In this document: positions 25,408 through 62,796 of the stretch, in pieces | Numbering within the stretch: position 1 is the stretch's first letter | Layout: each line of letters begins with the position of its first letter | From: Dehalococcoidia bacterium | GTDB taxonomy: Bacteria > Chloroflexota > Dehalococcoidia > Dehalococcoidales > RBG-16-60-22 | Assembly: GCA_041300405.1 (NCBI GenBank) | Contig: JBGLNK010000001.1 | Location: 1,418,545-1,482,544, forward strand | DNA length: 64,000 nucleotides | Direction of reading: 5' to 3' | The notes under the pieces: generated by a model | Database searches by the model: none | Told to the model about the DNA's origin: nothing | The model's input: the letters and a program-made list of their open reading frames with translations, nothing else | Translations under genes and position numbers: made by a program

Positions 25408-25646
25408 GCCATCCTCTTTACTTTTAAGCTCTGGGTAGACATGAAACGGCTGAAAATATATACGTTGCCGCTCGTGATTTTGGCTCTGTTCCTTTCATCG
25501 CTTGTTGCGGCTTGCGGTGACCCCGCCGCTCCAATCTGCATATTCCGGTACGGCGGAGCCGCAGTTCCGGTGGGTAGTGAGCCAGTGTTCCGGTAACTGC
25601 GGAGCCACCGTTCCGGTTATGAGATCCACACAGGGTTATTAGATTA

Positions 25647-27940: not shown

Positions 27941-28175
27941 TTATTGACCCTCCTTAAAATATATTTATGCCATTAAGCACAAACACATTCTAAGGAAAGT
28001 CGCCAGGTGGGTGGCTCTCTGCCCCGGAAGGGTGGCTCCCATCCGCCGGAACCGTGGCTCTCAAACTCCGGAACTATGGCTCAATTTGGTCCGGAATATT
28101 CATCTGAATAAGCCTTCCATATTTTCTTGAGTCTAGTTTACGACCTGGAAAAACAGGTTTATAAATGCTTCTTCA

Positions 28176-30838: not shown

Positions 30839-31996
30839 TTGGACTATTTTTTAACGGAACAGCAAAAGACCATCAAAGACCTGGCGCGGCGCCTCGCCGA
30901 GGAAAGAATCCTGCCTATACGGTCGGAACTGGATGAAAAAGAAGAGTTCCCCTGGAACATCATGAAAGACCTCGCGGACGCCGATTTGTTCCGCGTTTTT
31001 GTGCCGGAAGAGTATGAAGGCCTCGGCGGCGGCTGCCTGGAGCTCTGCCTCGTGACCGAAGAATTAAGCCGGGTATGCAGCGGCGTGGCCGTGAGCTATG
31101 CGGCCAGCGCTTTAGGCGTGATGACGGTGATGGAATACGGTACGGAGGAGCAGAAAAAGAGATTCCTGCCGGATATCGCCAGCGGCAAGAAGCTCGGCGC
31201 GTTTGCCATTACCGAGCCCACCGCCGGCAGCGACGCTTCCAACATCAAGACCACGGCGGAAAAGGTGGAGGGGGGATATTTAATCAACGGCACCAAGCAG
31301 TTTATTACCAACGGCGGCGAGGCCGAAATATATACCATTATCGCCCTGACGGATAAAACCAAAGGGGCGCGCGGCGCAAGCTCCATCGTCGTGGAAAAAG
31401 GCACGCAGGGCTTTACCTTCGGCAAGAAAGAAAAGAAAATGGGCATCCGCTCCTCAGCCACGCGCGAGCTTGTCTTCAAGAACTGCCTCGTCCCGGAAAG
31501 CAACCTCATCGGCAAACCGGGACTGGGCTTCATCCAGGCGATGCGGCTTTTCGACCGCTCCCGCCCCGGCATCGGCGCGCAGGCCGTGGGGCTGTGCCAG
31601 GGCGCTTTAGAAGCAGCGACGGATTACGCGCAGGAACGCGTACAGTTCAACCAGCCGCTGATTACCCAGCCCGTCGTCCAGCAGATGCTGGCGGACATGG
31701 CCATCCAGACGGAAGCCGCCCGCGCTTTAGTCTATGCGGCGGCAAAGTACGTCGACAGCGGCGCGAAGAACGTCACCGAAACATCGGCGATGGCTAAAGT
31801 ATTTGCCTCCGATGCCGCCATGAAAGTGACCGTGGACGCGGTGCAGATATGCGGCGGCGCCGGCTATATGCGGGACTACCCGGTGGAAAAAATGATGCGC
31901 GACGCTAAAATCCTCCAGATTTACGAAGGCACCAACCAGATACTCCGCAACGCCATTGCCGTGAACCTGCGCAAGAGGAAGGCCCGCACGGCATGA
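30839..31996 (+). CDS. acyl-CoA dehydrogenase (short/medium-chain type)
   Basis: 385 aa; TEPTAGSDA, QFITNGG, YEGTNQI motifs; TTG start after AGAGAGGA. Confidence 0.9.
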   Translation: MDYFLTEQQKTIKDLARRLAEERILPIRSELDEKEEFPWNIMKDLADADLFRVFVPEEYEGLGGGCLELCLVTEELSRVCSGVAVSYAASALGVMTVMEYGTEEQKKRFLPDIASGKKLGAFAITEPTAGSDASNIKTTAEKVEGGYLINGTKQFITNGGEAEIYTIIALTDKTKGARGASSIVVEKGTQGFTFGKKEKKMGIRSSATRELVFKNCLVPESNLIGKPGLGFIQAMRLFDRSRPGIGAQAVGLCQGALEAATDYAQERVQFNQPLITQPVVQQMLADMAIQTEAARALVYAAAKYVDSGAKNVTETSAMAKVFASDAAMKVTVDAVQICGGAGYMRDYPVEKMMRDAKILQIYEGTNQILRNAIAVNLRKRKARTA

Positions 31997-32778
31997 ACAT
32001 CATCGTCTGCCTGAAGCAGGTACCCGGCACAACCGCCGTGAAAATAGACCCGCAGACCAATACGCTGGTCCGGCAGGGCATCGAGAGTATTATCAATCCC
32101 TTCGATACTTATGCCGTCGAAGAAGCAGTGAGAATCAAGGAAAAACTCGGCGGCAAGGTGACCGTTATCACGATGGGACCGCCCCAGGCGGAAACAGCGC
32201 TGCGCGAGGCCATATCCCGCGGCGCGGATGAAGCCTTGCTGCTCACCGACCGCGCCTTTGGCGGGGCCGATACCTGGGCGACGGCACGCACGCTGGCGCA
32301 AACCATTCTTAAATTAAAGCCTTACGACCTGATTATCTGCGGACGGCAGACCATCGACGGGGATACCGGGCAGGTCGGCCCGGAGATGGCGGAGATGCTG
32401 GGCATACCGTTCATCGCTTACGTCAGCCAGGTGGAAGAAATATCAAATAATAAGATCCGTGTCCGGAGGATGATTGAAGAAGGCCATGAAGTCATCGAAG
32501 CGGAACTGCCGGCGCTGATTACCGTTGCCAAGGAAATCAACCTGCCGCGACTGCCGTCGCTGCGCGGGATATCGCGCTCAAAAAGCGCCAGGATACCGGC
32601 ATGGGGCGTCGCCGAGCTCTGCATCGATGCCGCAACGGTCGGGTTATCCGGTTCGTCCACACAGGTCATTAAAATCTTCTTCCCGCAGAGGGTCAGCCAG
32701 GCGGAAATTCTCACCGGTAATCCTGAAAATCAGGTTGATAAGTTAATCGATAAACTCAAGGGCGCAAGCCTGGTCTAG
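31993..32778 (+). CDS. etfB: electron transfer flavoprotein beta subunit
   Basis: MNIIVCLKQVPGT..., DLIICGRQTIDGDTGQVGP motifs; ATGA overlap with the ACAD gene. Confidence 0.9.
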   Translation: MNIIVCLKQVPGTTAVKIDPQTNTLVRQGIESIINPFDTYAVEEAVRIKEKLGGKVTVITMGPPQAETALREAISRGADEALLLTDRAFGGADTWATARTLAQTILKLKPYDLIICGRQTIDGDTGQVGPEMAEMLGIPFIAYVSQVEEISNNKIRVRRMIEEGHEVIEAELPALITVAKEINLPRLPSLRGISRSKSARIPAWGVAELCIDAATVGLSGSSTQVIKIFFPQRVSQAEILTGNPENQVDKLIDKLKGASLV

Positions 32779-32790
32779 ACTTGGAGTAGT

Positions 32791-33528
32791 ATGACCGTTA
32801 CCTGGATACTATTAATCGTCATCGGCTATTTTTTCGGGTCGATACCGCTTTCTTACATTTTAGGTAAAAGGCGCGGGGTAGACCTGAGTAAACAGGGCAC
32901 GCACCAGGTAGGGGCCGGCAACCTCTGGAGGATTACATCCCGCAAGCTCGGCTTCATGGTAGGTTTTTATGATTTCCTCAAAGGCATGGCCATGCTGATT
33001 GTTGCCTGGCAACTTGGACTCGATGCCGGGCAGCAGCTCGTCGTCGGGCTGGCGGTTATCGTCGGTCATAACTGGCCGGTCTTCTTAGCCTTCCACGGCG
33101 GCCGCGGTATCGCCACATTGCTGGGGCTGGTGGTAATCCTCCCGATTTTAAACGATATTTCTCCCTGGCCTTCCGTAATTGGCATAGCTATTACTCTAAT
33201 CCTGACCGTCATTTACCGCAGTTCACCGCTGCCGGTGCTCATAAGCGTCATTTCACTGCCGCTGACCAGTGGGCTATTCGGCAGCCCGATGGGTGTGTAT
33301 TCGGCTTATGTGGCGATTCTACTGGTGGTAATCATTAAGCGCCTGACCGCCCAGCCGGCGCCGGAGAAACTGCCGATAAGCCGGGGACGACTGATAGTTA
33401 ACCGCCTGTTCTTCGACCGCGATATCGCCGACAAACATGCCTGGCTGCACCGCCCGCACTTTAACGAGAAGGAAATCCTGGAATATCCGGCAGACGAAGA
33501 AGAATCGGAAGCAGGTCTTAAGCGCTAA
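32791..33528 (+). CDS. plsY: glycerol-3-phosphate acyltransferase PlsY family, with C-terminal extension
   Basis: GYFFGSIPLSYILGK, GAGNLWR, VIVGHNWPVFLAFHGGRG motifs. Confidence 0.75.
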   Translation: MTVTWILLIVIGYFFGSIPLSYILGKRRGVDLSKQGTHQVGAGNLWRITSRKLGFMVGFYDFLKGMAMLIVAWQLGLDAGQQLVVGLAVIVGHNWPVFLAFHGGRGIATLLGLVVILPILNDISPWPSVIGIAITLILTVIYRSSPLPVLISVISLPLTSGLFGSPMGVYSAYVAILLVVIIKRLTAQPAPEKLPISRGRLIVNRLFFDRDIADKHAWLHRPHFNEKEILEYPADEEESEAGLKR

Positions 33529-38534: not shown

Positions 38535-38918
38535 TTAAGCTCCCATCTTTTCCATGTCGAGAAGACAGTCATAGCTTTCCCGGGAGGAGATATATTGGCC
38601 TATGCCGCAGCGGTTGTAGCCTCCAAAATTTTCAATATGCGCTTGCGCGAACTCCTCGGGAGAAATTTTACATGCAGGATTGGTAACGGCGTCATGCCAA
38701 TGATCAACTCCGGAACCGCCGCAACCACTGGTTCTGGTAACCCCTTTTTCTACCAGCACAACACTGGCACCTTTCCTGGCGGCACCAATGGCCGCCCAAC
38801 ACCCCGCGATACCGCCACCGAGCACCAGCACATCACTACTGACTTCTGTTTCTTTCTCATAGGCCACTGTGTAGGGCCATGCCGGGGCATCTTTGTGAAT
38901 CAATTCATCATAACGCAT
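38535..38918 (-). pseudogene. FAD-dependent oxidoreductase (AprA / fumarate-reductase flavoprotein-like), only the first 127 aa
   Basis: VLVLGGGIAGCWAAIGAARKGASVVLVEK dinucleotide-binding motif; stops after DMEKMGA and is followed by AT-rich noncoding DNA. Confidence 0.65.
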
Positions 38919-38931
38919 AATTATCTTCCTT

Positions 38932-39222
38932 CTATAACAGTAGTCTTATCATTCTCCAGAAAGCGAGCGGGCGGCGCCGATGACGACCTCTTTGGTAACC
39001 GGGTCGTAAACGGTGCCGGCGAGGAACTGCCGGATGGGCTCTTTTTCCACGTCGGGCTCGCCGCCCCGACGTAGGCGCACTGGATGCGCTGCTTATCGTT
39101 GAGCTGGTAGCGTCCTGGATTCCGCTGCGGTATAGCTCGTGTGACTTTTTACCGCCGTAATGGAGGGTAAAAATGGTATACTCCGGTAAGCCTTCCGAGC
39201 AGTCAGTCAGGATTGTATGCAT
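38932..39222 (-). pseudogene. small ORF upstream of the flavoprotein fragment, broken by at least two frameshifts
   Basis: Readable pieces in three frames (MHTILTDCSEGLPEYTIFTLHYGGKKSHELYRSG / NPGRYQLNDKQRIQCAYVG / VEKEPIRQFLAGTVYDPVTKEVVIGAARSLSGE*); function unknown. Confidence 0.35.
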
Positions 39223-39238
39223 GGTTTTTCTTAAATCA

Positions 39239-39817
39239 TTACCGGTCGTATATTTGTTTATTCGATTGTTTTCTTGACGTTTTTTCAATCCTCTGCCCGG
39301 CCATCTTGAGTATTTTTTCTTTGAGTAAACAAACCATTTCGTTTTCATACGCGATTTTTTCGATACTCAACCCTCTTTTTCGTATCTCGCGTTCCATTCT
39401 TAGCAATGCGGCTTTTTCTCTCTCCGAACGCTTGACATTGATTTTCTTCAAACCATAGGTCGCTAAAAGCAGACTCCTCAGACCCCAGGGTCGCAGCATG
39501 ATCTGTTCAACTTCTTCAGGATCTAAGTTTAATTTCAATGAAAGACCCTTTATCATTTCATTACGCTTTCCGGGTTCTTTGTTGAATCTGATCATCTGCT
39601 GGTAGATAAACTCAAATTGGTCTGGTAACTTCTTCCAGGATTGATAATAGCGGCGACAGGTGCTGGTATTTACTTCATGTTCTTTAGCTACCTGGTGCCA
39701 ATTCTTTCCGTTGTCGAACTCGTCGAAACATAATTGCCTGTTAGATCGACCGTACTTATCTAACTTCGGCATGTTACGTGGCTGAGAAAATAAGGTGAAA
39801 CCGCGTCGTTTTTTCAT
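39239..39817 (-). CDS. hypothetical protein with HTH-like N-terminal region
   Basis: 192 aa in an AT-rich block; NWHQVAKEHEVNTSTCRRYYQSWKK resembles a transposase/terminase-type HTH; charged coiled C-terminus. Confidence 0.45.
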   Translation of the reverse strand: MKKRRGFTLFSQPRNMPKLDKYGRSNRQLCFDEFDNGKNWHQVAKEHEVNTSTCRRYYQSWKKLPDQFEFIYQQMIRFNKEPGKRNEMIKGLSLKLNLDPEEVEQIMLRPWGLRSLLLATYGLKKINVKRSEREKAALLRMEREIRKRGLSIEKIAYENEMVCLLKEKILKMAGQRIEKTSRKQSNKQIYDR

Positions 39818-40623
39818 TCTCTTTCACTCGACAAATATTGATGTTTTTTGACATTTAATCGACTAAAATGCGTCTTTAAAAGACAATTATTAGCTCATTT
39901 AACCACAAAATATCCAAAACATACCTGCGCATATCAAACTAATATTCATATATATTGTATCTCATTTATATCACTAATTTCAAAATTTTGATGAAACAAG
40001 ATGAAATAATACGGATTTGTTAGTGTAAGATCCCTTTCGTCGTCTACTGAATCTATAATAACCGTACGGGAATGAATCTGATTGGCCAATACCCCAGCTT
40101 CAAACAGGGGATTTCGCCAGAAAATGAGTGCCAAAATAGTCAGAGATGTCATTCAGTTCACTCATCTTGTACCTTTTCCTTCTCTCAACCGACCGGCTAC
40201 TAGTTTATCCGCCCGCCAAAGTCAGGGATTAGCTACAATATGTCTTCGAAGTCCCCTAAAGAAGGGACGCCGGACTAAGATTACCGATTTACAATATGGC
40301 AGAGTCAATTTCCTTCAGCATCATCGTTGAAAAGAGATGCAAAATGACCGATCTGTTGGCAAAAGGTAACGATGCGGTTGCCCAAAGACAAGGAATACCG
40401 CTAAAGTTTGAGGTTCCCGTGAAATGATTGCCTGCCGGGATGATAAATCTCCTTTATGTTTTTCCCCCCACCCGCTATACTGTCACTACCTTGGTATCTG
40501 GCGCCATTTCCGGGGCAAACTTTAATTAAATACACCCCGACCTTGCGACGAGGGAAGTTTACGTTATCATACGTGGCTTATTATTAGCCGACTTTGTATA
40601 TTTAATAAAGGAGGATATCGACC

Positions 40624-41506
40624 ATGGCACCAGGAAAGAGAATGACAGAAGCTGCTAAATCTCCGGTTGAAGAAACGAAAATAGATTATGCCGGGTCTGC
40701 TATAGGTTGCGCGAGGATCAACCCCGCCAGTTCTTATGGAGCAGTCCCGATGTTGTTAAAAAATTATATTGACACCGGTTCAGTGCCGGTCTGGGAAGAG
40801 ATTCGTCAAAGAATTGATAATACCTATCTGGCCGTCAGCGCTGCCATGCAAGCCCTGGATAAAGAGACATCTTTTTCCGGGGATGTTAGGAGACAGGTAA
40901 AGGGCGGGAAGAAGTTGTTTTTTAAACCAAACCTGGTATCGCTGCCGGCCATAGACCCCAGGACCCACAATCCGGTACTGTGGGGAACCTGCCTGCCTTG
41001 GGAATTCCTGTCAGCCGTGATGCGCTGGTTCCATGATGAGATGAATATTTCTTATCATCAAATGGCACTCGGAGAAGGGGGTGCGGGGACCGCGGCGGCT
41101 GCCTTTACGACATCCAGACTTTGGGGCGGCCGGACGGTGACCACCCAGGCATTGATGGAAGGAAAATCAGGGGAAAACTATGGTGGGTGGGGGTTCTACT
41201 TCGCTAGAAAGTACCTGGCGGAATCCCATAATTCCAAACATTCGGATGACCCCATGCAAGGTTATGAGGAAAGTCTTTCCGGCCATTGCCTGCCTCCGGG
41301 ACAGGTCAGCGACAAATTACTAATTTATGACCTTAATAAAATAGCGGACGATAGGTCTGACGGCCGTGAAATACCGGTGCCTGATGGCATTAACTTCAGG
41401 AATATAATTATCCATAAAGCTGTTGTGGGCGGTAACCCGGGTGACAGTGAAGACCTGAGGAATTGGCCTGGATGCGTTCTGGTGAATGTGACCAAGTTGA
41501 AAATAC
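40624..41506 (+). pseudogene. DUF362-family protein, 5' part, interrupted by IS3
   Basis: AAGGAGG RBS; GGKKLFFKPNLVS motif typical of DUF362; reading frame runs into the IS3 inverted repeat at 41507. Confidence 0.65.
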
Positions 41507-41586
41507 TGAGGTGGACCCCAAAATTCGGACAGGTTGTTAAGGTGGAATCTTGCTCTTAAAATAAAATGGGAGAAAAGGAGCAAGAC

Positions 41587-41871
41587 ATGAAAGGAAACCG
41601 CAGGAAGCACAACCAGTCGTTCAAGGCCAGGGTAGCGCTGGAAGCGCTTAAAGGAGAAGCAAGCATTGCCGAGATTGCCAGCCGCTATGAAGTCCACCCC
41701 AATCTGGTAACCAAGTGGAAGAAAACCCTCCAGGATGAAGCTGCCGGTATCTTCGGTGAAGACCATGCCCGTAAGAAGAAGCAGGGTGAAAACCTGGTTG
41801 CTCAGTTGTACCAACAGATAGGCCAGCTCAAGGTAGAAAAGGATTTTTTAGAGAATGTGCTGCGTCGCTGA
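41587..41871 (+). CDS. IS3 OrfA (HTH protein)
   Basis: AAAGGAG RBS; FKARVALEALKGEASIAEIASRYEVHPNLVTKWKK typical of IS3 OrfA; slippery T TTT TTA at 41844-41850. Confidence 0.85.
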   Translation: MKGNRRKHNQSFKARVALEALKGEASIAEIASRYEVHPNLVTKWKKTLQDEAAGIFGEDHARKKKQGENLVAQLYQQIGQLKVEKDFLENVLRR

Positions 41872-42774
41872 GTCTCGAAGAGAAGCGCCGCGGAGTCGAG
41901 CGAACGTCTTCCCTGCCCATCACACGCACGTGTCGGTTACTGGGCATCAGCCGCTCGGTTCTCTACACCGGTCGAAAGGGCCGCAAGATAAGGAACATGC
42001 GCTCATGAAGCTGATCGATCGGCAATATCTGCTGACGCCGTTTTACGGGTCGCGCAAGATGGCCGTCTGGCTCAGAGAGAGGGATATGCCGTCAACCGCG
42101 AGCGGGTGCGGCGTCTGATGAGATTGATGGGGCTGCGGGCCATCTACCGGCGGCCCCGGACGAGTAAGCCTGCGCCGGGGCACAAGGTCTACCCATACTT
42201 GCTCGGCGGCATGAATATCACCCGGCCGGACCAGGCTTGGGCGGCGGACATCACGTATATCCCGATGAAGCTAGGTTTTCTGTACCTAGTGGTCATCATC
42301 GACTGGTACAGCCGCTGCGTGCTCTCCTGGAGACTCTCCAACACCCTTGAGGCAGATTTCTGTATCGAGTCCTTGAAAGACGCCCTCAAGAAAGGCAAGC
42401 CAGAGGTATTCAATACCGACCAGGGCAGCCAGTTTACCGCAGAAGCTTTCACGGAAATACTGAAAAAACATGATATCCGGATCAGCATGGATGGAAAGGG
42501 AATTTATAACGACAATCTTTTCATCGAGAGGCTATGGCGAACGGTCAAATACGAGGAAGTCTACCTGAAAGCCTACCGGGATGGAACGGAAGCCTGGCGC
42601 AGCCTGGACAGCTACTTCCGCTTCTACAATAACGAGCGCCCACACCAGTCTCTGGGCTACCGCAACCCGGCGGAAGTCTATGCTGGAACTCTGGAACCTA
42701 TCAATGGAGGTATGGTACAATCCCTATCATCAACAGCAGGATTCCACCTTATCTTGAGGTGCCCGAATGGGTAA
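41845..42774 (+). pseudogene. IS3 OrfB (DDE transposase) with two extra frameshifts
   Basis: The expected -1 frame (LSLEEKRRGV..LLGISRSVLY) stops at 42006; homology continues in another frame (LMKLIDRQYLLTPFYGSRKM) and shifts again near the AGAGAGAGGG run 42073-42083 (GYAVNRERVRRLMRLMGL...DQGSQFT...NNERPHQSL). Confidence 0.8.
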
Positions 42775-42781
42775 GTACGCA

Positions 42782-42927
42782 AGCTGGAACGAGTTCGAGA
42801 AAAACATCCCCCTGTGAAAACGGAAGACGGGATAATAAAGGACTTCGGCCTCAATATGTTCCGCGATGAGAACTGGCAGAAACGCGCGGGAACGTTATTG
42901 GTTGATGGCAATAAAAGGAGGTCTTAA
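42782..42927 (+). pseudogene. 3' part of the IS3-interrupted ORF
   Basis: In frame with 40624-41506 once the 1275-bp IS is removed; its stop TAA overlaps the ATG of the next gene (TAATG). Confidence 0.5.
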
Positions 42928-43667
42928 TGGTAATACCAGCAATACTGGACAAGAAGGACAAGGACATCATTTCACAAGAGTTCAGGGATGCTGTCGGGGC
43001 GGATAAAGTGAAGGATGATGACGTGGTTTTAGCAGCCTACGGCTCTGATTCCAGTTATGTGCCTTTTCGCAAGCCGAACTGGGTGGTTCTTCCCGAAACT
43101 AAGGAAGACGTAGCAGCGCTTCTGAAGCTCGCCAATAAACATAAGATTCCTGTAGCCGCTTTCGGCCGGGGGGTCAATATTGCCGGATACGGTGTGCCCT
43201 CGGAAGGCGGCATTGTGATGGACCTCCGGCGCATGGACAAGATATTCGAGATAAATACCGATTCAGGATATGCCGTTATTGGACCCGGCGTCACCTTCGA
43301 CCAGTTCGCGGTAGCGTTAGCCAAAAAGGGGTATCGATGCCCTTTACCTACGGGACCGGGCGGCGGCTCCGCTATTGGTACCTATCTGATGAGACCATCG
43401 CAGAACATGGTCACCAAGCGTCTCGATCCCATCGTAGACCTGGAAGTAGTCCTGGCGGACGGTACGATTTTCAATACCGGTTCATCGCATTTTGCTAACG
43501 GTGGCAGTGGCATGAGATATGGTCCATACCCTGACCTGTCCGGGATATTTTGCTACGCTTATGCCACTATGGGGATAGTCACCAGTGCCTCCGTGACGAT
43601 TTACCCGATAAATGAGGCTAACCGCGTCAACGTAGCGGCCTTCGATAATTTCCCGGCCCATATTTGA
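42927..43667 (+). pseudogene. FAD-linked oxidase (VAO/GlcD-type FAD_binding_4), 3'-truncated
   Basis: PNWVVLPETKEDVAALLKLANKHKIPVAAFGRGVNIAG and downstream FAD-binding blocks; stops at 246 aa, so the substrate-binding/cap domain is absent. Confidence 0.65.
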
Positions 43668-52106: not shown

Positions 52107-52139
52107 GGGGGTTAAGGGAGTAGGGATTAGGGTTGAGGG
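52107..52139 (+). repeat. G3N4 heptad element (G-quadruplex-type motif), copy 2
   Basis: GGGGGTTAAGGGAGTAGGGATTAGGGTTGAGGG: five G-tracts with a strict 7-nt period. Confidence 0.8.
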
Positions 52140-53056
52140 TATAGAGAATAGGAAAAATTGTATTGATTATTCTGTAATAAAAGTGCATATAATAATAGAC
52201 AGAACTCAAGGTGGAGGTGATAACATTGACTACAACCGGTACGAAATACCTTGTTGATAATAAAGGCAAGAAATTTAACCTTTAAAACCTGCGATTCGGA
52301 ATCAGTCACGCCGAACGCGTTTTCCATGACATCAACCTGATGCCCCCGGAACATGATATTCAGCTCCGCCGGGCCAAAAAAATCCACCACCGCCCGCACG
52401 CGACTGGACTGATCAAGGTAACCGCTCGAACCTTCAAAACCGGCACTCGCATCGGCAGTACCGAGCAAAGCGACCAGGTGCCCACCCGCGCTGCCGCCCC
52501 AGACCCCTATTTTATCGGGATCGAGGCCGTAGTCAGAGGCTGTAGCTCTCAGGTACCGCACCGCGCATTTGACGTCTTCAATCATGGCGGGGAATTTATA
52601 TTGCGGGGCCAGCCGGTAATTAACCGAGACAACAAGATAACCTCGTTTTATCATTTCCGGTATTTCATTGGCGCCGGCGCCGGCTGTTTTATCGCCACCC
52701 GTCCAGCCGCCGCCGTGGACATACATGACCACAGGTAAAGCTCCCGCGGCGGTTTGCGGATAATAAATATCCATTTTTAAAGATACATTATCGGCAACAC
52801 CGTAGGTCACATTTTTCTCCGTTGTGCCCAGCTTGACCGGATTCGGGCCGGGCAGTTGAGATGGAGCAGGCGCAGTGGAAGGCAATGCAGTTGGTATAAT
52901 TGAAGTTGGAGGACCTATAGTCTGAGATAATGTAGTGGCAGGTATTGTAGCGGGGATTGGTGACGGCGGGGTTCCAGTTTGGCAAGACATGAAAAACAGG
53001 AGCGCCGCCAGCAGCAAAGCCGGACAGACTATATTAAATTTAATCATCTGGAACAA
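52127..53056 (-). pseudogene. alpha/beta hydrolase (esterase/lipase type), 3'-truncated
   Basis: Signal/TM N-terminus, HGGGW oxyanion motif, GGSAGG nucleophile elbow; after ..DSESQVLK (about 52280) the ORF runs through AT-rich repeat DNA, so the Asp/His part of the triad is absent. Confidence 0.65.
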
Positions 53057-53180
53057 TTCTATGACAAGTATCGATATTATGTAAATAGTACTTTTTATAT
53101 CTGCCTAGCCAAACCGCTTAAAACCATTTATAATCATAAGCGGTTGTATCAAAGATGTCTGCTTGAAAGGAGCACAATAC

Positions 53181-54677
53181 ATGGAAATCAAGGTTACCGC
53201 CGGTGATATCAGCAAAATAGAAACCGGCGCTATCATCACGGGTTATTATGAGAACACCAAGAAGCCGGAAGGCGATACCGCAGCGGTGGATGCCGCCCTC
53301 GATGGGCTGGTTACCCGCCTGATTAAAAAGGGCGATATTAAAGGCAAACTGAATGAAATTACGCTACTGCACTGCGCGGGTAAAGCGGCTGCCACCCGTT
53401 TCGTCATCGTCGGCCTGGGTAAAAAAACCGACATTACAACAGAAAAAATACGATGCGCAGTCGGCGAGGTATGCCGCTACCTGCGTCAAAAAGGCGTCGA
53501 CCGTATTGCCAGCGGCTTACTGGGGGCGGGGGTTAACGGTATCAAGAATGATAAAGCCGTCCAGTCTATGACCGAGGGCGCGATGCTCGGCCTTTATGAT
53601 TTCCGCAAGCATAAAACCAAGAAAGACGATACATATACCGAGGTCAAGGAGTTCGCGATTATCGGAAAAGATAAAAGCGCGATAGACAAAGCCGTCAAAC
53701 AAGCGGAAATAATCGCCAATGCCGTGAACTGGACACGCAACCTCGTTAACGAGCCGTCCAACTTTTTAACTCCGGCCGACCTGGCCGAGGCCGCCCGGAA
53801 AATCGCAACAGACAACGGTCTTAAAATTGAAGTGCTGGAAAAAAAGCAGATGGCTTCATTGGGCATGGGTGGTTTGCTGGGCGTCGCCCAGGGGAGCCAG
53901 CAGCCTCCGCGGTTCATCATCATGACTTATAAAGGCAAGAATACCAAAGACGTTGATATTGCGCTGGTCGGCAAGGGCATCACGTTCGATACCGGCGGCA
54001 TAAGTATCAAACCTTCCACCGACATGCACGAAATGAAGACCGATATGGCCGGAGCGGCTTCCGTCATCGCCGCCATCGGCGCAATCGCCCAACTTAAACC
54101 GGCTATTAACGTCACCGCCATCGCACCGGCTACAGAGAATATGCCCAGCGGCACCGCCCAGAAACCCGGCGATATCATCAAGGCGATGAACGGCAAGACA
54201 ATCGAAGTGCTCAACACAGACGCCGAGGGCCGCCTGATACTGGCCGACGCTTTAAGTTACGCCCGGAAACTGGATGCCAGGGCTATCATCGATATTGCCA
54301 CGCTGACCGGTTCCTGCCGGGCAACCCTGGGCACTTTTGTCACCGGGGCTTTTTCCAACAACCAGCCGCTGGTCGATAAGCTCATTGCCGCGGGCAATGA
54401 AGCAGGCGAGCGCGCCTGGCTGTTTCCGATGTTCGAAGAATACGGAGAGATGATTAAGAGCGAGATCGCGGACATACAGAATGTGGGCGGTAAGTACGCC
54501 GGAGCCATTACCGCGGCCAAGTTCCTCGCCGAGTTCGTCGACGATACCCCCTGGGTGCATATGGACATCGCCGGCACCAGCGAGACCGATAAAGATAAAG
54601 GATACCAGGTTAAAGGCGCTACCGGCAACCCGGTGCGCACACTGGTGAACCTGGTATTGAAGATGGCGGAAGAATAA
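53181..54677 (+). CDS. pepA: leucyl aminopeptidase (M17)
   Basis: AAAGGAG RBS then MEIKV; NTDAEGRL and VGKGITFDTGG motifs. Confidence 0.9.
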   Translation: MEIKVTAGDISKIETGAIITGYYENTKKPEGDTAAVDAALDGLVTRLIKKGDIKGKLNEITLLHCAGKAAATRFVIVGLGKKTDITTEKIRCAVGEVCRYLRQKGVDRIASGLLGAGVNGIKNDKAVQSMTEGAMLGLYDFRKHKTKKDDTYTEVKEFAIIGKDKSAIDKAVKQAEIIANAVNWTRNLVNEPSNFLTPADLAEAARKIATDNGLKIEVLEKKQMASLGMGGLLGVAQGSQQPPRFIIMTYKGKNTKDVDIALVGKGITFDTGGISIKPSTDMHEMKTDMAGAASVIAAIGAIAQLKPAINVTAIAPATENMPSGTAQKPGDIIKAMNGKTIEVLNTDAEGRLILADALSYARKLDARAIIDIATLTGSCRATLGTFVTGAFSNNQPLVDKLIAAGNEAGERAWLFPMFEEYGEMIKSEIADIQNVGGKYAGAITAAKFLAEFVDDTPWVHMDIAGTSETDKDKGYQVKGATGNPVRTLVNLVLKMAEE

Positions 54678-54696
54678 CGGTCCGAACGAGATATAC

Positions 54697-54765
54697 GACG
54701 GCGAAGCAATCGAACAAGTTATAAAACGGATTGCTTCGCTACGCTCGCAATGACTTAACAAATTC
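54697..54765. repeat. hairpin repeat (GCGAAGCAATC...GATTGCTTCGC + CGCTCGCAATGAC)
   Basis: Inverted repeat plus the CTCGCAATGAC tail shared with 50163-50178 and about 101-123. Confidence 0.65.
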
Positions 54766-54784
54766 TGAGGCAAGGAGGCGTTAA

Positions 54785-55441
54785 ATGAAAATCAAATGGC
54801 TGGCCCACTCCGCATTTCTCATCACCGCCGATTCCGGTACACGGATAGTCACTGACCCGTACCAATCCGGCGAGCGGCACAGGCACACAGAGTTCTCCGA
54901 AGCCGCGGACATCGTGACCGTGAGCCACGGCCACAGCGACCATAATCATACCGACCCTATTAAGGGAAACCCGCTGGTGCTGGATAAAGCCGGAGAGGCT
55001 GAAGGCATTAAAGACAAGAACGTTAAAATCAAGGGCGTAGCCGCAGCTCACGATGAGGCCGGGGGCTCTAAACGAGGAGCGAATATTATTTTCTGCCTGG
55101 ATATTGAAGGCGTGAAAATTTGCCACTGCGGCGACCTGGGACACCTGCTCACGGACGAACAGGTAAAGGCCATCGGCCAGGTGGACGTGCTGATGATACC
55201 GGTGGGCGGTTTCTTTACCGTTGAGCCGCCGGAAGCCGATAAAGTCATCGGGCAGCTTAAACCTAAAATCATTTTACCCATGCACTACCTGACGGAAAAA
55301 ATCAGCATCCCTATTAAAAAAGAGGATGAATTTCTCAAGGGGAAGAATAATGTTAAACGCGCCGAAAGCAGTGAAATCGAGGTTAAAGCGGGCAAGCTCC
55401 CGGCCAGCGCGCAGATAATCATGTTGAAATATTCGCTTTAA
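54785..55441 (+). CDS. MBL-fold metal-dependent hydrolase (UPF0173-like)
   Basis: MKIKWLAHSAFLI.., VTVSHGHSDHNH motif. Confidence 0.75.
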   Translation: MKIKWLAHSAFLITADSGTRIVTDPYQSGERHRHTEFSEAADIVTVSHGHSDHNHTDPIKGNPLVLDKAGEAEGIKDKNVKIKGVAAAHDEAGGSKRGANIIFCLDIEGVKICHCGDLGHLLTDEQVKAIGQVDVLMIPVGGFFTVEPPEADKVIGQLKPKIILPMHYLTEKISIPIKKEDEFLKGKNNVKRAESSEIEVKAGKLPASAQIIMLKYSL

Positions 55442-55442
55442 C

Positions 55443-56069
55443 ATGAAGACGTACTGGGAGAGCCGTTATCAGACCGAAGGTAAAATTTGGGGAAATGCGC
55501 CCAGCCGGACGGCCGTACATGCACAGGAATTTTTCCGGCAGGCCGGAGTGAAAAAAATTCTCGTGCCGGGTTCGGGCTACGGGAGAAACACACGGCTATT
55601 TTCCGCCTCCGGTTTGGATATGACCGGCGTTGAAATTTCACCTTCGGCTTGTAATATGGCAAAGGTTTTCGACCCGCAATCCAGTTTCTACAATGCCTCC
55701 GTCCTGGACATGTCTTTCCTCGCTGAAAAATTCGATGCGGTCTACTGTCATAGTGTCCTGCACCTTTTCCGCGAGCAGGATAGAAAAACCCTTATCCGGC
55801 AAAGCGCCGACCGGCTCGCAGTTAACGGCCTTATGTTCTTCTCTGTTATGTCGGAAAAAGACCCCGGTTACGGCAAGGGCGCGGAAACCGAAAAAACCAC
55901 CTTTGAAAGCAAGCCGGGAAGGCCGGTGCATTATTTCACCGCCGCCGACCTGCAAGCTCACTTTAACGCGATGAAAATCCTGGAAACAGGCATCATGGAA
56001 GAACCGGAAAACCACGGCGAGGAAGGGCCGCATGTTCACCCGTGGCGTTATATCTATGTTAGAATATAA
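55443..56069 (+). CDS. class I SAM-dependent methyltransferase
   Basis: ILVPGSGYGRN motif I equivalent, FDAVYCHSVLHLF motif; starts 1 nt after the preceding stop. Confidence 0.7.
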   Translation: MKTYWESRYQTEGKIWGNAPSRTAVHAQEFFRQAGVKKILVPGSGYGRNTRLFSASGLDMTGVEISPSACNMAKVFDPQSSFYNASVLDMSFLAEKFDAVYCHSVLHLFREQDRKTLIRQSADRLAVNGLMFFSVMSEKDPGYGKGAETEKTTFESKPGRPVHYFTAADLQAHFNAMKILETGIMEEPENHGEEGPHVHPWRYIYVRI

Positions 56070-56075
56070 TTGTTC

Positions 56076-56553
56076 ATGATAAATCCTAAAGACATCGAAC
56101 TCATCATCTTCGATATGGACGGGACAATTCTCCCATCTCTTCTGCCTTTCTATGAATCGATAAAGCGGGCTTTTACCAAGCTGGGGTGGCCGGTAACTTT
56201 CAGCCCCGGAGAAATCAACCGGTTCTTCGGTGTTACCACGGCGTCAATCAAAGGCAGCGTATACGAGTTCATCACCCCGCTAAACAGCCCTATTTCCACC
56301 GAAGAAATCCGGGAAAGAGTCCGCGCGGAAAATGATGAAATATTTCATGAAATGGCGCAAACTTACCCCGGCGTGAAAAAAACCCTGAAAATACTGCGCC
56401 AAAGGGGCTACAAGCTGGCACAGTATACCAACGCTTCCATATCTTATTTGAATACTATTATGTCATCTCTGGAAATAAGAGACTACTACGATTACGTCGA
56501 ATGCGTCGAAGACAACCACCTTACAAAAACCGAACTGGCAAAGAAAATCAAAG
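56076..56553 (+). pseudogene. HAD-superfamily hydrolase, 3'-truncated
   Basis: [12 protein letters not shown] (motif I) and LAQYTNAS (motif II); the reading frame then continues as the antisense of the ClpC fragment, producing the artificial 363-aa track ORF. Confidence 0.65.
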
Positions 56554-57472
56554 CTAGGATATTGGCAGCGTCAACAGCGCCTTCAGCGGCGCCGGCGCCC
56601 ACCATGGTGTGGAATTCGTCGATGAATATTACGCAGTTGCCGGCCGTTTTTATTTCATCAACGATTTTCTTTAATCTTTCCTCGAACTCGCCGCGGTACT
56701 TGGTGCCCGCTACCAGCGAGCCCATGTCCAGGGCTATCAGCCGCTTGTCCTGCAGAGTCTCGGGAACGTCACCGGCTACGATGCGGTGGGCCAGCCCTTC
56801 GACGATGGCCGTCTTGCCCACTCCCGGTTCACCGATGAGCGCGGGATTGTTCTTGGTGCGCCGGCTTAAAATCTGGATGACGCGCTCGATTTCCTTGTGC
56901 CGCCCGATGACCGGGTCGAGTTTGCCCTTGCGGGCCTGCTCGGTAAGGTCGGTGCCGAGCTGGTCGAGCGCCGGTGTGCGGCTGGATGAGCGGGTCGCCC
57001 TGGTACGGGGCGAGGAGGATGAGGGGGTGCTTTGCGTTAAAATGTGGGATACTTCAGCCCGGGCTCTCTCCAGCGTAATGCCGAAGCTGTCCAGCACGCT
57101 GGAAGCCACGCCTTCGCCTTCACGGAGGAGGCCGAGCAGCAGGTGTTCCGTGCCGATATAATTATGTCCCATCTGGCGCGCTTCATCGATCGCCAGTTCA
57201 ATGACTTTCTTGGCTCTTGGGGTAAGGCCGGTTTCTCCGGTGCCGGGCTTATCCCCCCGGCCGATGATAAACTCCACCGCGGAACGCACTTTGCTGAGAC
57301 CGATGCCGAGGTTGGTCAGGACGCGCGCCGCTACGCCTTCTTCCTCGCGGACGAGGCCGAGCAAAATATGCTCGGTTCCGATGTAGCTATGGTTAAGGCT
57401 GCGAGCCTCTTCCTGGGCTATTGTGAGGACGCGGCGGGCTCTTTCTGAAAATTTTTCAAATCTGCTTGCCAT
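56492..57472 (-). pseudogene. clpC: ATP-dependent Clp protease ATPase ClpC/ClpB-type, only the first ~305 aa
   Basis: Two Clp_N repeats ([22 protein letters not shown]), Walker [18 protein letters not shown]; homology ends at ..GAVDAANIL (56555), then 20 unrelated codons. Confidence 0.75.
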
Positions 57473-57518
57473 ATATTCCCCCCGGAATACCTGTTTTTAA
57501 ATACACCTCTACTTTAAT

Positions 57519-57546
57519 ATTATACCACCATTGAGAGTTAAGCAAG
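57519..57546 (-). promoter_or_regulatory. extended -10 promoter upstream of the clpC fragment
   Basis: Minus strand TGGTATAAT (57519-57527) with TTGCTT-like -35 at 57540-57545. Confidence 0.45.
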
Positions 57547-57680
57547 CAGGGACTAAAGCGTAGTTGTTGAACCCGCTATTGCGGGACCCCGGTTTTCCGG
57601 GAGCGAGGCAATCTCTGACGTTGTTATTGTATCCGTTGGAGATTGCTTTGCAATAACAGGTGTATTGCTGCTTGCCAAAC
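57541..57680. repeat. nested inverted repeats between 5S rRNA and clpC
   Basis: GCAAGCAG/CTGCTTGC outer stem; TGTTATTG/CAATAACA; GCAATCTC/GAGATTGC; CCCGG-AAAA-CCGGG; CCCGC-AATA-GCGGG. Confidence 0.6.
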
Positions 57681-57733
57681 AATCTCAATAAAAGAAATGT
57701 CTATAATGTATCATCAGGCTAGAAAAAACTAAA

Positions 57734-57856
57734 CCTCCTGGCAGTGGCATATTTTCCACAAAGGGTTCCCCCCTCAGTATCGTCTGCGCTGGAGCGTTTC
57801 ACTTCCGTGTTCGGGATGGGAACGGGTGGTGCCACTCCGCTCTAACCACCAAGAGG
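57734..57856 (-). rRNA. rrf: 5S ribosomal RNA, not adjacent to a 23S gene
   Basis: Minus strand reads CCUCUUGGUGG...CCACCCGUUCCCAUCCCGAACACGGAAGUGAAACGCUCCAGCGC...CCACUGCCAGGAGG with pairing termini; ends +/- 3 nt. Confidence 0.9.
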
Positions 57857-57912
57857 CAAGTCACGATAAAAAAACTATTGATTTGTTAAAGCTCTACCCT
57901 GATACAAAAGAC

Positions 57913-57921
57913 ATTATAACA
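57913..57921 (-). promoter_or_regulatory. extended -10 element upstream of 5S rRNA
   Basis: Minus strand TGTTATAAT, 56 nt upstream of the 5S 5' end. Confidence 0.4.
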
Positions 57922-58226
57922 CAACCTTTGCCATAAAAAAAGCCCCCGGTCAGGTTTATTGTAGGAATATTGGTATAAAATCCGTAGGAATGCCCGGGAA
58001 AGAGCCGCCTTTTACGGGTTATACGCCCTTGACAAGCACAGAGACAAGTGATAGGTTATTGAAGGGCTTTTTCAGAAAAATACCATCCGGGCCGGCGCGC
58101 TTTCTATTTATGCAGCTATAACGCCGGCAATATTATTTGCAGCAAACCGCGGGGCGGATTGATTATCCGGTCCTCCGGTTTAACTAAATGATTTAGTCCT
58201 GTGTAAAATAGTAAGGGGTGAATATA

Positions 58227-58523
58227 ATGAGCATCGAGCTGGTTCACATAGGGTTCGGGAATATTCTGGCTATGAGCAGGGCAATTGCGATAGCTTCACC
58301 GAATTCCGCGCCCACCAAGCGCATTATCCACGAGGGCAGGAATAGCGGCAAGGTAATCGATATGACATCCGGCAGGAGGACCAAGGCGGTTATTTTCACC
58401 GACAGCGGGCATATTATCCTGGCGGCGCTGGCGCCGGAAACAATTTCCAGCCGTCTCCAGTCGGGACGCAGCGGTGCGCCGGTAAAACAGGAACAGGGCG
58501 ACGGTACCGATGAGCTCCAATAA
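58227..58523 (+). CDS. remA: RemA/DUF370 family regulator
   Basis: [32 protein letters not shown]... canonical RemA sequence; AAGGGG RBS. Confidence 0.85.
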
Positions 58524-59136
58524 AACCTCCGGGCTTAATCCACAGGGAAAGCCCTTACTTATCATCCTTTCCGGCCTTTCCGGAGCGGGCAAAGATTCGG
58601 TATTGAACGAACTTAAAAAATGCGCGCGGCCGCCGGAAACCATCATCACGGTCACTACCAGGCCGCGCCGCCATAATGAAAAAGACGGCGTGCATTACAC
58701 CTTTGTTTCACCGGAAAATTTCCAGGCGATGATTGACGCCGGTCAAATGCTGGAATGGGCTGCCGTTTACGGCAACCGCTACGGCGCGCCCCGGGAACCG
58801 GTGAAAAAAGCCCTGGAAAGCGGCAAAGACGTCATTATCAAGGTTGATGTCCAGGGTGCCGCCACTTATAAGAAAATCGTTCCCCAGGCGGTGTTTATCT
58901 TCCTGGCGCCTCCTTCGATAGAAGATTGCGCGCCGCGGCTCAAGGAACGCCGCACGGAAAGCCCGGCGGAACTTGAACTGCGCCTGGAAACCGCCCGGAA
59001 AGAAATGGATATGCTGCCTATCTTCGATTATATAGTAATAAACCGGCATAATGAACTGGACAAAGCCGCAGCCGAAGTCAAGGCGATTATCGCAGCGGAA
59101 AAGTGCCGCGTCAAACCGCGTGAAATAAAACTTTAA
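58510..59136 (+). CDS. gmk: guanylate kinase
   Basis: [11 protein letters not shown]-loop, TTRPRR.E..G..Y.F motif; overlaps remA by 14 nt. Confidence 0.9.
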
Positions 59137-59187
59137 TCCCGTTAACCCGGCGGCAGTGTTCCAGGCTGCAGCCGGGAGTATGCAACT

Positions 59188-59817
59188 TCAGGCATGCTTG
59201 AGGGCTACCCCTTCAAGGACGTTGGCTACATCTTCACAGCGGTCGGTGGCGCTTTCCAGGTGCTCGTAAATTTCACGCCATTTAATAACCGTAGCTATAT
59301 CGGAGTTGTTTTCAAAAAGCTCGCCGATGGCGGCGCGGTAGATGCGGTCGGCCACGTTTTCCAGCCGGTTCATTTCTACACAGTGTTCGAGCATGTTCTT
59401 GAACTCGGATTTCTTGCGCAGGCCGGCCACGGCCTTTTCCATTTCCGCCGCGCCCTGGACGATGACATCGGCCAGTTCTTTAGCCCTTTGCGTGGGACTT
59501 GTTATCTTGTAGATAAACATGGCATCGGCCGAGGCATGGATGAAATCGATGATGTCATCCATCGTGTGCGCCAGGAGGGCGATATCCTCCCGGTCGAAAG
59601 GCGTCACGAAAGTGCGGTGCAGCATGGAAATAACCTGATGGGTGATGGTATCGCCGGCGTGTTCCATCTCGGTTATTTCAGCCACATGGCTGTCGATAAA
59701 TTGCCAGGTATCGAGCATGTCTTTCAGGGATTTGGCTGCTTTGGAAGTGTTTTTAGCGCTTTCTTCAAACAGGTCGAAGAATTTATGCTCCTGGGGCATC
59801 AAATGTAGTTTTACCAT
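59188..59817 (-). CDS. DUF47 family protein (PhoU-like, usually partner of a Pit phosphate transporter)
   Basis: 209 aa; FFDLFEESAKN..., EHAGD, DRCEDVAN blocks of the DUF47/TIGR00153 family; no pit gene adjacent. Confidence 0.75.
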   Translation of the reverse strand: MVKLHLMPQEHKFFDLFEESAKNTSKAAKSLKDMLDTWQFIDSHVAEITEMEHAGDTITHQVISMLHRTFVTPFDREDIALLAHTMDDIIDFIHASADAMFIYKITSPTQRAKELADVIVQGAAEMEKAVAGLRKKSEFKNMLEHCVEMNRLENVADRIYRAAIGELFENNSDIATVIKWREIYEHLESATDRCEDVANVLEGVALKHA

Positions 59818-60193
59818 ATTAATTCTCCTTTAAGAAGGTAAAATGTGCTTCAGAAATCCTGAACCTAAGCGGGGCTAAATGTAACTTTGGTTCTGGAGAG
59901 GGAACTGTAAAAGAAAAAATAAAATTTAGTCTGATGTGACGGAAGGATTGCCCCTGTTTAACGGGCAAAAACATTATCCTTTTTCCATACCGTAATTTTT
60001 ATCATAGGCCAGAATGAGTGTATTAAAAACGGGCGGAAAAGTCAAGGAAACGGGGTCATTCTTTTTACAAATAACCCGCCGGATAAGCGCAGGACGCCCG
60101 CTGGATTGGCGGTTTGCTAGAATAGCGGCGGGATGTGTACTAGAATGTATTTAATTAAGTTTTAGCTGGATAATAACAAAGGAATTCTTAACG

Positions 60194-60727
60194 GTGCAAA
60201 GTACGGCAGATAAAAGCAAAATAAAGGTTTTTACCCCCGGGAAAATAGGCAGCATGGAACTGCGCAACCGCACTATCAGGTCCGGTTGTTTCGAGGGGAT
60301 GTGTGCGTACGCTGCGCCCGGCGAAGCATTAATCGAACATCACAGGAAAGTCGCCGCCGGCGGCATCGGCATGACCACCGTGTCTTATTGCGCCGTATCT
60401 GCGGATGGAGTGGCCTTCGAACATGAGATGTGGATGCGGGAAGAGATTGTCCCCGCTTTGAAACGGCTCACGGATGCCGTGCACCGGGAGGGCGCCGCCG
60501 CCTCGATACAATTGGGGCATTGCGGTTTCTTCGCCAACAGGTTTGCCATCGGAAAGACTCCTATCGGCCCTTCCCGCAAGTTTTGCCTCTTCCGGTACAG
60601 CGTCTGCCGCGCGATGAATGAAGAAGATATCGGGCGGGTGCGGGAGGACTTCGGCAGGGCGGTAAAAATGGCGGTGCAGGCCGGGTTCGACGCCGTGGAA
60701 ATCCATGCCGGGCATGGGTATCTTTAA
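60194..60727 (+). pseudogene. NADH:flavin oxidoreductase (Old Yellow Enzyme family), first ~177 aa only
   Basis: LRNRTIRSGCFEG.., AAASIQLGHCG, GFDAVEIHAGHGYL then stop; homologs continue LSQFLSP.. Confidence 0.75.
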
Positions 60728-60833
60728 AGCCATCCTCGCAGTTCATTTTTACGAGTACCGGATAACCGGGGCCGGCAGCTTCCCTGGCGCGCCTGATGAC
60801 GGAAACAGGAAAGCGCAGGCGGTTTTCCAGCAT
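60725..60833 (-). pseudogene. inverted 109-bp piece of the same type of OYE gene
   Basis: Minus strand translates LENRLRFPVSVIRRAREAAGPGYPVLVKMNCEDGFK, the OYE segment lying ~19 aa after HGYL. Confidence 0.7.
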
Positions 60834-61097
60834 GCAACCCTCGCAGATGCCCAGGCGGCTGGCGCCGTCACCTGGAACTACGGGCTGTTCATCAATACTA
60901 TCATCGCTTTTTTCATCATTGCTTTAGCTATTTTCATGATCGTAAAAGCGGTGAATAAAGCCCGGAAAGCCATGGACGCCAAAAAGGCAAAAGAGGCGAT
61001 TGCCGCCGCTCCTGTTACCAAAGACTGCCCATTCTGCGCCACGGCTATCCCGGTAAAAGCCACCCGCTGCCCGCACTGCACTTCTGAAATCAAGTAA
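60834..61097 (+). pseudogene. mscL: large-conductance mechanosensitive channel, 3' two-thirds only
   Basis: ATLADAQAAGAVTWNYGLFINTIIAFFIIALAIFMIVKAVNK.. matches MscL from the periplasmic loop/TM2 onward; no TM1 and no start. Confidence 0.7.
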
Positions 61098-62041: not shown

Positions 62042-62515
62042 ATGTCAATAAAAGCCAACAAGGCCAAGGAACAAAGGATCGTAGAGGAAGTACTGAACCA
62101 GGGGAAAATGGATGTGTTGGATGGGTGCCTGGCGGTAGGCTTTGTCTACCACGGCCCGGGCGGGGCGGAGATTAAAGGTATAGACGGGTATAAAACATTC
62201 ATTTCCAGACTGCGCGCCGCCTCCCCTGACATCCACGTGACTATCGAAGACATCCTGGCGGAAGGAGACATGGTGGCTACCCGCACACTTTGTACGTTTA
62301 CCTTTACTGTGCAAAGCGGCCCAGTTGCGCCAACACGCAAAAAAGTGTCCATGACAGGCAGCATCCTCGACCGTTTTCAGGATGGTAAAATAGCAGAAAC
62401 GTGGGAACAATATGACCGCTTTGACATGTACCAGCAAATGGGCATCATTCCGGTAAGGCCGGTATTAAAGCCTGGATTCAAGCGGAACTTACGTAAAAAG
62501 CGCCATCCCGATTAG
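62042..62515 (+). CDS. SnoaL-like ester cyclase family protein
   Basis: EEVLNQGKMDVLDGCLA..FVYHGPGG..GIDGYKTFISRLRAASPD pattern of predicted ester cyclases. Confidence 0.65.
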   Translation: MSIKANKAKEQRIVEEVLNQGKMDVLDGCLAVGFVYHGPGGAEIKGIDGYKTFISRLRAASPDIHVTIEDILAEGDMVATRTLCTFTFTVQSGPVAPTRKKVSMTGSILDRFQDGKIAETWEQYDRFDMYQQMGIIPVRPVLKPGFKRNLRKKRHPD

Positions 62516-62616: not shown

Positions 62617-62796
62617 ATGTCTATAAAGCGGAACAAGAACAAAGAAACTACACTTACAATGGATAGCATCCTGGACCGCCTGGTTGATGGTAAAGTAATG
62701 GATACACCAGATATGTATGACCGGTTAATGCTCTCCCAGCAGTTGAGCATCATGCTTTGCATCCCGGCAAAACAGGCTCCCAAGAGGGTGAGGTAG
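62617..62796 (+). pseudogene. internally deleted paralog of the ester cyclase (59 codons)
   Basis: GGAAGGAG RBS; MSIKRNKNKE.. parallels MSIKANKAKE.., and ..DSILDRLVDGKVMDTPDMYDRLMLSQQLSIM parallels GSILDRFQDGKIAETWEQYDRFDMYQQMGII; the middle ~100 aa are missing. Confidence 0.55.

Follow-up and report, generated by a model that had tools for sequence, protein, structure and literature searches.

At positions 60194–61097, the window (the whole 64,000-nucleotide stretch of DNA that was analysed) carries the first part of an OYE-family gene, a short piece of the same gene in opposite orientation and the distal part of mscL. Two junctions separate these three pieces, and the two OYE pieces lie at the right-hand end of a block, the left edge of which is described below:

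56555..56556, no strand: left edge of the block 56556–60831, where a HAD-hydrolase gene is abutted to a ClpB/ClpC-like gene (minus strand), placed from profile ends
60194..60724, plus strand: codons 1–177 of an OYE-family gene (NADH:flavin oxidoreductase, Pfam PF00724), ending in HGYL
60715..60733, no strand: junction 1 (60724|60725), centred on the palindrome CTTTAAAG, placed by alignment to the contig L003
60725..60831, minus strand: inverted OYE codons 232 to 197 (LENRLRF…NCEDGFK), placed by the match to positions 756–865 of L003
60831..60832, no strand: junction 2, from inverted OYE to mscL, blunt with 0–1 nt microhomology
60832..61097, plus strand: mscL codons 70–156 and the stop codon (Pfam MscL, TIGR00220)

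The plus-strand OYE segment (60194–60724) matches positions 1–178 of the 342 in Pfam Oxidored_FMN (PF00724) with an E value of 4e-26, and the N-termini of several NCBIfam OYE models match it as well. The reference for all comparisons is P0122, an intact 405-residue homolog from the same 90% protein cluster, which is encoded on the 1495-bp ENA contig L003. The window protein is about 94% identical to residues 1–177 of P0122 (166/177 in the alignment), and nucleotides 1–714 of L003 pair with window positions 59969–60737 on the plus strand. The next part of L003 (756–865) pairs with window positions 60831–60722 on the minus strand, with 101 of 110 nucleotides identical (92%, E 1e-43), which is far above chance. 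By tblastn, the identity of the inverted segment is 85% (E 2.5e-16); taken alone, the segment scores weakly against the OYE family (E 0.04 with Pfam and 4e-4 with the BaiCD model). The minus-strand reading of 60725–60831/60833 is (M)LENRLRFPVSVIRRAREAAGPGYPVLVKMNCEDGFK. The leading methionine of MLENRLRF is not OYE sequence, and the OYE-derived part stops at 60831. In the intact gene of L003, HGYL and LENRLRF are separated by exactly 19 codons (57 nt, LSQFLSPWTNKRRDWYGGS), all of which are skipped in the window. The comparison with L003 thus bears out the initial annotation, in which the OYE homology ended at HGYL (60724), the following stretch was opposite-strand OYE and about 19 residues were missing in between.

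A complete OYE protein is an FMN-binding (βα)8 barrel of about 340 profile positions, and the intact relatives are 395–405 residues long. Here, profile positions 1–178 are found on the plus strand and 198–227 on the opposite strand. Judged by its sequence, the window OYE is a gene fragment or pseudogene and no functional member of PF00724. Its N-terminal part shows three window-derived and four homolog-derived lineage-specific substitutions. As this is no excess, the event that disrupted the gene would be recent relative to the DNA divergence of about 7–16% from the intact homolog. Other pieces of OYE or MscL were not found within the 64-kb window.

The mscL fragment encodes the end of the periplasmic loop, TM2, the cytoplasmic helix and, at its C-terminus, a CPFC…CPHC zinc ribbon, but it lacks TM1. 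It covers approximately positions 58–112 of the 123–127 in the MscL profiles (61–109 of 123 in Pfam MscL) and scores 48 bits with TIGR00220, against a cutoff of 71. Members of PF01741 and TIGR00220 possess both TM1 and TM2 and score over the cutoff, and the window gene, with its first 69 codons absent, falls outside this definition. It had been described as the 3′ two-thirds of mscL up to its natural stop. The stop is indeed the natural one, but the 87 codons present amount to 56% of about 156, not to two-thirds. The MscL reading begins with the first base after junction 2: the OYE sequence ends in …TTTTCCAGC and is followed by AT GCA ACC…, in which the AT at 60832–33 is part of a conserved MscL tyrosine codon, as in (T)AT-Ala-Thr. 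Intact mscL relatives encode 146–156 residues (contigs L004 and L033). A C-terminal CxxC…CxxC zinc-ribbon extension is shared by a clade of MscL proteins of about 146–156 residues (window 60996–61097; L004 10001–10441; L033 990–1460), and most of the best 120 listed MscL homologs have about this length. Downstream of mscL the gene order is kept, with a pentapeptide gene, a SnoaL gene, a 59-aa ORF and FTHFS. The SnoaL-like gene (62042–62515) precedes a 59-codon ORF (62617–62796) that resembles the C-terminal 42 residues of SnoaL (43% identity, E 2e-9). Its conservation in relatives (L033 and a JGI contig) suggests that this ORF is perhaps a genuine small gene and not debris.

Junction 1 is built on a short imperfect inverted repeat. 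The intact gene of L003 reads …TAT CTT TTA AGC C… at codons 176–180 and …GGC TTT AAA GGC… at codons 230–233, so that CTTTTAAGCC at codons 177–180 faces GGCTTTAAAG at codons 230–233 with an inverted match of 9/10 overall, 4 nt of which are an exact match. When the first arm is compared with the reverse complement of the second, the quasi-palindrome is CTTT[T/A]AAGCC. The window reads TATCTTTAAAGCCATCC at this point; therefore the crossover falls in CTTT and creates a TAA stop (60725–60727) immediately after HGYL by turning CTT TTA AGC into CTT TAA AGC. In the predicted single-stranded DNA fold of the intact homolog, the two repeat arms pair as the outermost helix, although the overall fold does not stand out (z = -0.44). 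Analysis of GC skew gave no replication direction, and the promoter and terminator scan was uninformative.

The same junction is found in two further assemblies. L001 is a 4284-bp contig of the NCBI MAG GCA_041300435.1, which is 99.77% identical to window positions 56556–60831, junction 1 included. L006 is a 1311-bp Logan assembly contig of run SRR28346262, which matches window positions 59503–60813 with two mismatches and also includes junction 1. Junction 1 is base-identical in the window, L001 and L006, and these represent three different SNP haplotypes. It is interior to its three contigs, all of which end 89–115 nt past it, and both L001 and L006 run through it without a branch. The complete gene calls of the lineage comprise only the 177-aa form (a cluster of three), and the inverted orientation is the only one seen in the lineage. 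A native continuation from codon 177 to 178 appears in no assembly of the lineage, and when the last 227 residues of the intact homolog were compared with a 5.8-billion-cluster protein collection, no match exceeded 82% identity. The nearest homologs indicate that the organism is an uncultured member of the Dehalococcoidales. A scan of GTDB species representatives with the intact OYE returned 26 loci (best protein identity 81%, Dehalococcoidales-type 67–81%), none of them from this species. None of the 26 has PhoU_div upstream or mscL within 10 kb, and they therefore gave no reconstruction of the ancestral locus. A literature search on JBFYTV, GCA_041300435 and SRR28346262 found no paper.

Short OYE calls in the contigs L002, L034 and L035 were considered as further copies of this rearrangement and rejected, as these genes are collinear and frameshifted. 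In all three, the ortholog is split into two or three collinear ORFs (L002 8280–9481; L034 9836–11050; L035 37–1078), which suggests frameshifts, either long-read sequencing errors or independent pseudogenes.

Junction 2 behaves differently from junction 1. It is present in the window only, the ORF that spans it forms a singleton cluster, and exact-pattern scans of JGI metagenome contigs found no match for either junction 2 or the inverted segment. L006 ends at 60813, 18 nt before the junction. L001 diverges from the window exactly at junction 2: it runs on for 8 nt (CGAACCGCC; …CCAGCGAACCGCC) as native OYE sequence encoding Gly-Gly-Ser and then ends. Seven of these 8 bases match L003, and the single difference is synonymous. 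In the relatives, the gene after OYE is epimerase-like (L003, L008 and L012) and the one before mscL is a CGGC-domain gene (L033), which shows that OYE and mscL are not natural neighbours.

The block that ends at junction 2 has a comparable left edge. At 56555|56556, the HAD-hydrolase gene is cut at about codon 162, where HAD profiles end at about position 150–165 of about 220, and the ClpB/ClpC-like gene on the minus strand is cut after L306 of about 820–850 residues. Residues 8–306 of the latter match only positions 1–294 of the 853 in ClpB TIGR03346, and the ClpB/C match ends in …GAVDAANIL, after which KPAL is expected. L001 starts precisely at 56556. L036, a 3940-bp contig from the same MAG as L001, covers window positions 52586–56525 and ends 30 nt short of the edge. 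These 30 nt occur only once in the window and probably belong to the native HAD gene. Thus, in an independent assembly, window positions 56556–60831 form a free-standing contig, and the sequence on their left belongs to another. This block also holds a solitary 5S rRNA gene (57736–57853, minus strand, Rfam 89.8 bits), flanked by the ClpB/C-like gene and remA and without an adjoining 23S rRNA gene. The same arrangement in the independent contig L001 indicates that the 5S rRNA gene is genuinely unlinked here.

Six further genes in the window are cut within a domain, as placed by alignments to Pfam and PDB entries:

7856: methyltransferase without motif I
about 34177: Endonuclease V, 55 of 198 profile positions
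about 38538: FAD Rossmann protein of 127 aa, where 350–640 are expected
about 43660: GlcD-like flavoprotein that stops at a point equivalent to residue 243 of 471
about 47973: aldo-keto reductase whose start corresponds to residue 46 of 324, its first 45 residues being absent
52127–52345 (about 52.3 kb): esterase that breaks off at the counterpart of residue 187 of 304

With the cuts at 56555 and 60831, there are at least eight mid-domain cuts in 64 kb, in genes that are otherwise undecayed; no frameshifted or stop-riddled pseudogenes were seen in the window. A cupin truncation near 12.2 kb was dropped from the set (E 0.34). From about 34177 onwards, successive cuts are 4361, 5122, 4313, 8582 (2 × 4291, with the esterase cut between) and 4276 nt apart, and the distance from 7856 to 34177 is 26321 nt, or 6 × 4387. 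The spacing is therefore mostly 4.28–4.39 kb, with one block of 5.12 kb (38538–43660). Several of the cuts lie beside conserved motifs: AANIL|KP in ClpB/C, GGS|LENR in OYE, D-x-A|SVYGNE in the aldo-keto reductase and motif I of the methyltransferase. Short-read metagenome graphs typically break at strongly conserved motifs. All four independent contigs (L001, L006, L036 and L037) lie wholly inside blocks, and none crosses a boundary.

Elsewhere the window contains three insertion sequences in 64 kb: an IS21 element (25601–28039) with istA/istB and 32-nt imperfect terminal inverted repeats, an IS4/IS5-type DDE transposase gene (28253–29239) and an IS3 element with orfA/orfB (41566–42774). At 31993–33528, an acyl-CoA dehydrogenase gene and that for ETF beta are followed directly by plsY and not by the usual ETF alpha; both flanking genes look complete.

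Clean double truncations at regular intervals are unlike deletions and like abutted contigs of similar length, and this pattern points to a record assembled from pieces, with junction 2 as one of its joins. The 2.31-Mb record, deposited as a single contig of 2,310,894 bp without Ns, is best read as a pseudo-molecule in which short-read contigs of about 4.3–5.1 kb, in roughly decreasing order of length, were abutted without Ns. The block 56556–60831 would be one such contig, and mscL would open the next. The three assemblies probably break here because the sequence that follows, …WYGGSLENR…, is the most conserved OYE motif, or because it is strain-variable. A length-sorted order fits the four right-hand blocks (about 4313, 4300, 4277 and 4276 nt) and fails for the 5.12-kb block. 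Two further observations run against a pseudo-molecule: IS21, IS5 and IS3 are intact inside blocks, which is unusual for short-read contigs, and the ends of L001 could also be explained by a sample in which a window-type deletion allele coexists with the ancestral one.

Pseudo-molecules made by concatenating draft contigs without gap characters are an assembly or deposition artefact. The window shares with them flanking genes that are both cut mid-domain and undecayed, recurrence at contig-sized intervals, neighbours that are off synteny, and independent assemblies that stop at the join, one of which continues differently. It differs from a simple concatenation in the block that is out of length order and in the insertion sequences inside blocks, and the likeness is one of sequence pattern alone. 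Junction 2 is best explained as the place where two unrelated short contigs were abutted in such a pseudo-molecule. The initial annotation had treated the inverted piece and mscL as products of one event; this view does not survive the native OYE continuation of L001 and the similar cuts every ~4.3–4.4 kb. If junction 2 is a contig join, neither the 36-codon length of the inverted segment nor the truncation of mscL is a property of the organism.

Junction 1 requires a different explanation. A stochastic chimera of multiple displacement amplification (MDA) cannot recur base for base in three haplotypes, and junction 1 is therefore taken, on comparison of the assemblies, as a change that arose in vivo and is inherited in this Dehalococcoidales lineage, and not as an MDA chimera. 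Its anatomy fits a microhomology-mediated template switch or a small inversion. After OYE codon 177, the sequence would jump to the opposite strand at codon 232 and proceed backwards from there. Both breakpoints would fall in the 10-nt quasi-inverted repeat (CTTTTAAGCC / GGCTTTAAAG), as expected of a template switch during replication or of a small microhomology-mediated inversion, and the in-frame TAA that arises at the junction would kill the OYE gene. The inverted stretch would extend beyond its 60831 end in the window, at least to codon 194; it may be a 165-bp inversion between the repeat arms, a longer inversion or a join to something else. The template-switch or fold-back event proposed at the outset is thus retained for junction 1, with its 9/10 inverted match at the breakpoints, and given up for junction 2, the contig join. 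We consider it likely that junction 1 is real and junction 2 is a contig join.

The principal alternative is that the whole structure arose in vivo, as a deletion with an inverted templated insert made by a FoSTeS/MMBIR double template switch or by an inversion followed by a deletion. The window would then show a dead OYE gene fused to a 5′-truncated mscL, and the other cut genes would be deletion scars in a decaying, IS-rich genome. Such a history would agree with a record that is one 2,310,894-bp contig without Ns and in which IS21, IS5 and IS3 are assembled intact, and the left end of L001, which coincides with 56555|56556 to the base, would be expected if both alleles coexist. The missing OYE C-terminus of the lineage in the protein collection is also in keeping with it, as is an 11/13 direct repeat (GCCATCCTCGCAG / GCAACCCTCGCAG) that lies right after both junctions, at 60729–60741 and 60834–60846. 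The repeat has an empirical p≈0.002 before multiple testing, and each copy belongs to native coding sequence, one in OYE and the other in MscL. With junction 2 as a contig join, the repeat is probably fortuitous; the favoured explanation gives it no role, and it is left unexplained whether or not the junction is artificial. Yet biology does not put deletions every ~4.3–4.4 kb, and at least eight clean mid-domain cuts in 64 kb, with undecayed retained halves and no decayed pseudogenes, do not resemble scars. Moreover, L001 continues for 8 nt past junction 2 as native OYE with no stop at a branch, the microhomology at the junction is 0–1 nt, OYE and mscL are not neighbours in relatives, and the ORF across the junction is unique to this record. 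A wholly in-vivo origin is accordingly unlikely. Its most specific form, a single replication accident with two template switches, seeded at the 10-nt quasi-palindrome and perhaps guided by the 11/13 repeat, we regard as very unlikely. Were it true, several kilobases would have been deleted and 107 nt of inverted templated filler would lie between a dead OYE gene and a TM1-less mscL, with one ORF of 130 codons.

In the opposite direction, junction 1 could be an artefact as well. In a recurrent fold-back during library preparation, the 3′ end GGCTTTAAAG would snap back on CTTTTAAGCC, and assemblers would extend the contig end with the chimera as the path through the conserved OYE motif is tangled. 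This would account for the end of the contig 89–115 nt past junction 1 in all three assemblies; an inverted microhomology is sequence-determined and could recur in independent libraries, and inverted MDA chimeras primed at short complementary sequences are well documented (PMC1855051). However, such chimeras are scarce beside the true path and pruning would remove them, L006 and L001 pass junction 1 unbranched, all three SNP haplotypes carry it, and no assembly of the lineage contains the native 177→178 connection or the C-terminal half of OYE, which makes a recurrent artefact quite unlikely. A one-off chimera from strand-displacement amplification of the sequenced sample is less credible by far and can be regarded as extremely improbable. 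An inverted segment with an intervening deletion and a short priming homology does correspond to the class that makes up 85% of MDA chimeras (PMC1855051), but such chimeras are stochastic, junction 1 recurs unchanged in three assemblies of different haplotypes and so is not confined to one library, and the consensus of a metagenome assembly cannot come from a single chimeric molecule. The in-vitro amplification event that had been raised as a possible origin is accordingly rejected for junction 1, which is common to three assemblies with three SNP haplotypes.

Three other rearrangements were considered for junction 1. An inverted duplication (a true fold-back with a long stem) is unlikely, as it needs a branch at codon 177, through which L001 and L006 run. 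A single large inversion was rejected, since the partner junctions fail to match. A site-specific inverton was also set aside: the sole repeat is imperfect, 10 nt long and located inside the coding region, and there is no recombinase among the neighbours at 50.8–64 kb.

Quasipalindrome-associated template-switch mutations and short-range template switching have been described in E. coli by the Lovett laboratory (PMC7202029, PMC6357072) and in great-ape genomes (PMC7954356). Junction 1 resembles them in that each breakpoint falls in one arm of an imperfect inverted repeat (9/10), an inverted copy results locally, and the nascent strand appears to have copied the opposite strand a short distance away. 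In classical quasipalindrome events, a few bases are copied, the strand returns to its template and the hairpin is perfected. The stretch inverted here is at least 115 nt long and the skipped one 57 nt, and the return switch or second breakpoint is outside the view, as the contigs end 89–115 nt past junction 1. MDA chimeras (Lasken and Stockwell 2007, PMC1855051) likewise combine inverted sequence with an intervening deletion and are primed at 2–21 nt of complementarity, but unlike them junction 1 is reproducible over three assemblies and haplotypes. As it stands in the window, the structure reads as a deletion with 107 nt of inverted templated filler, the source of which lies 57 nt downstream of the first breakpoint. 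Complex rearrangements of the FoSTeS/MMBIR type include deletions with an inverted templated insertion. Unlike these, junction 2 is without microhomology and contradicted by L001, and the pattern is repeated at regular spacing throughout the window.

If the record is a pseudo-molecule, each of its block edges would mimic a gene fusion, truncation or rearrangement, roughly every 4.3–4.4 kb, and truncated or fused genes reported from the 2.31-Mb record need to be compared with the block boundaries. Junction 1, by its sequence anatomy, appears to be a real but ordinary pseudogenising rearrangement of an already known mutational class. Of the many OYE paralogs that this uncultured Dehalococcoidales lineage has, it would have inactivated one, with little biological consequence.
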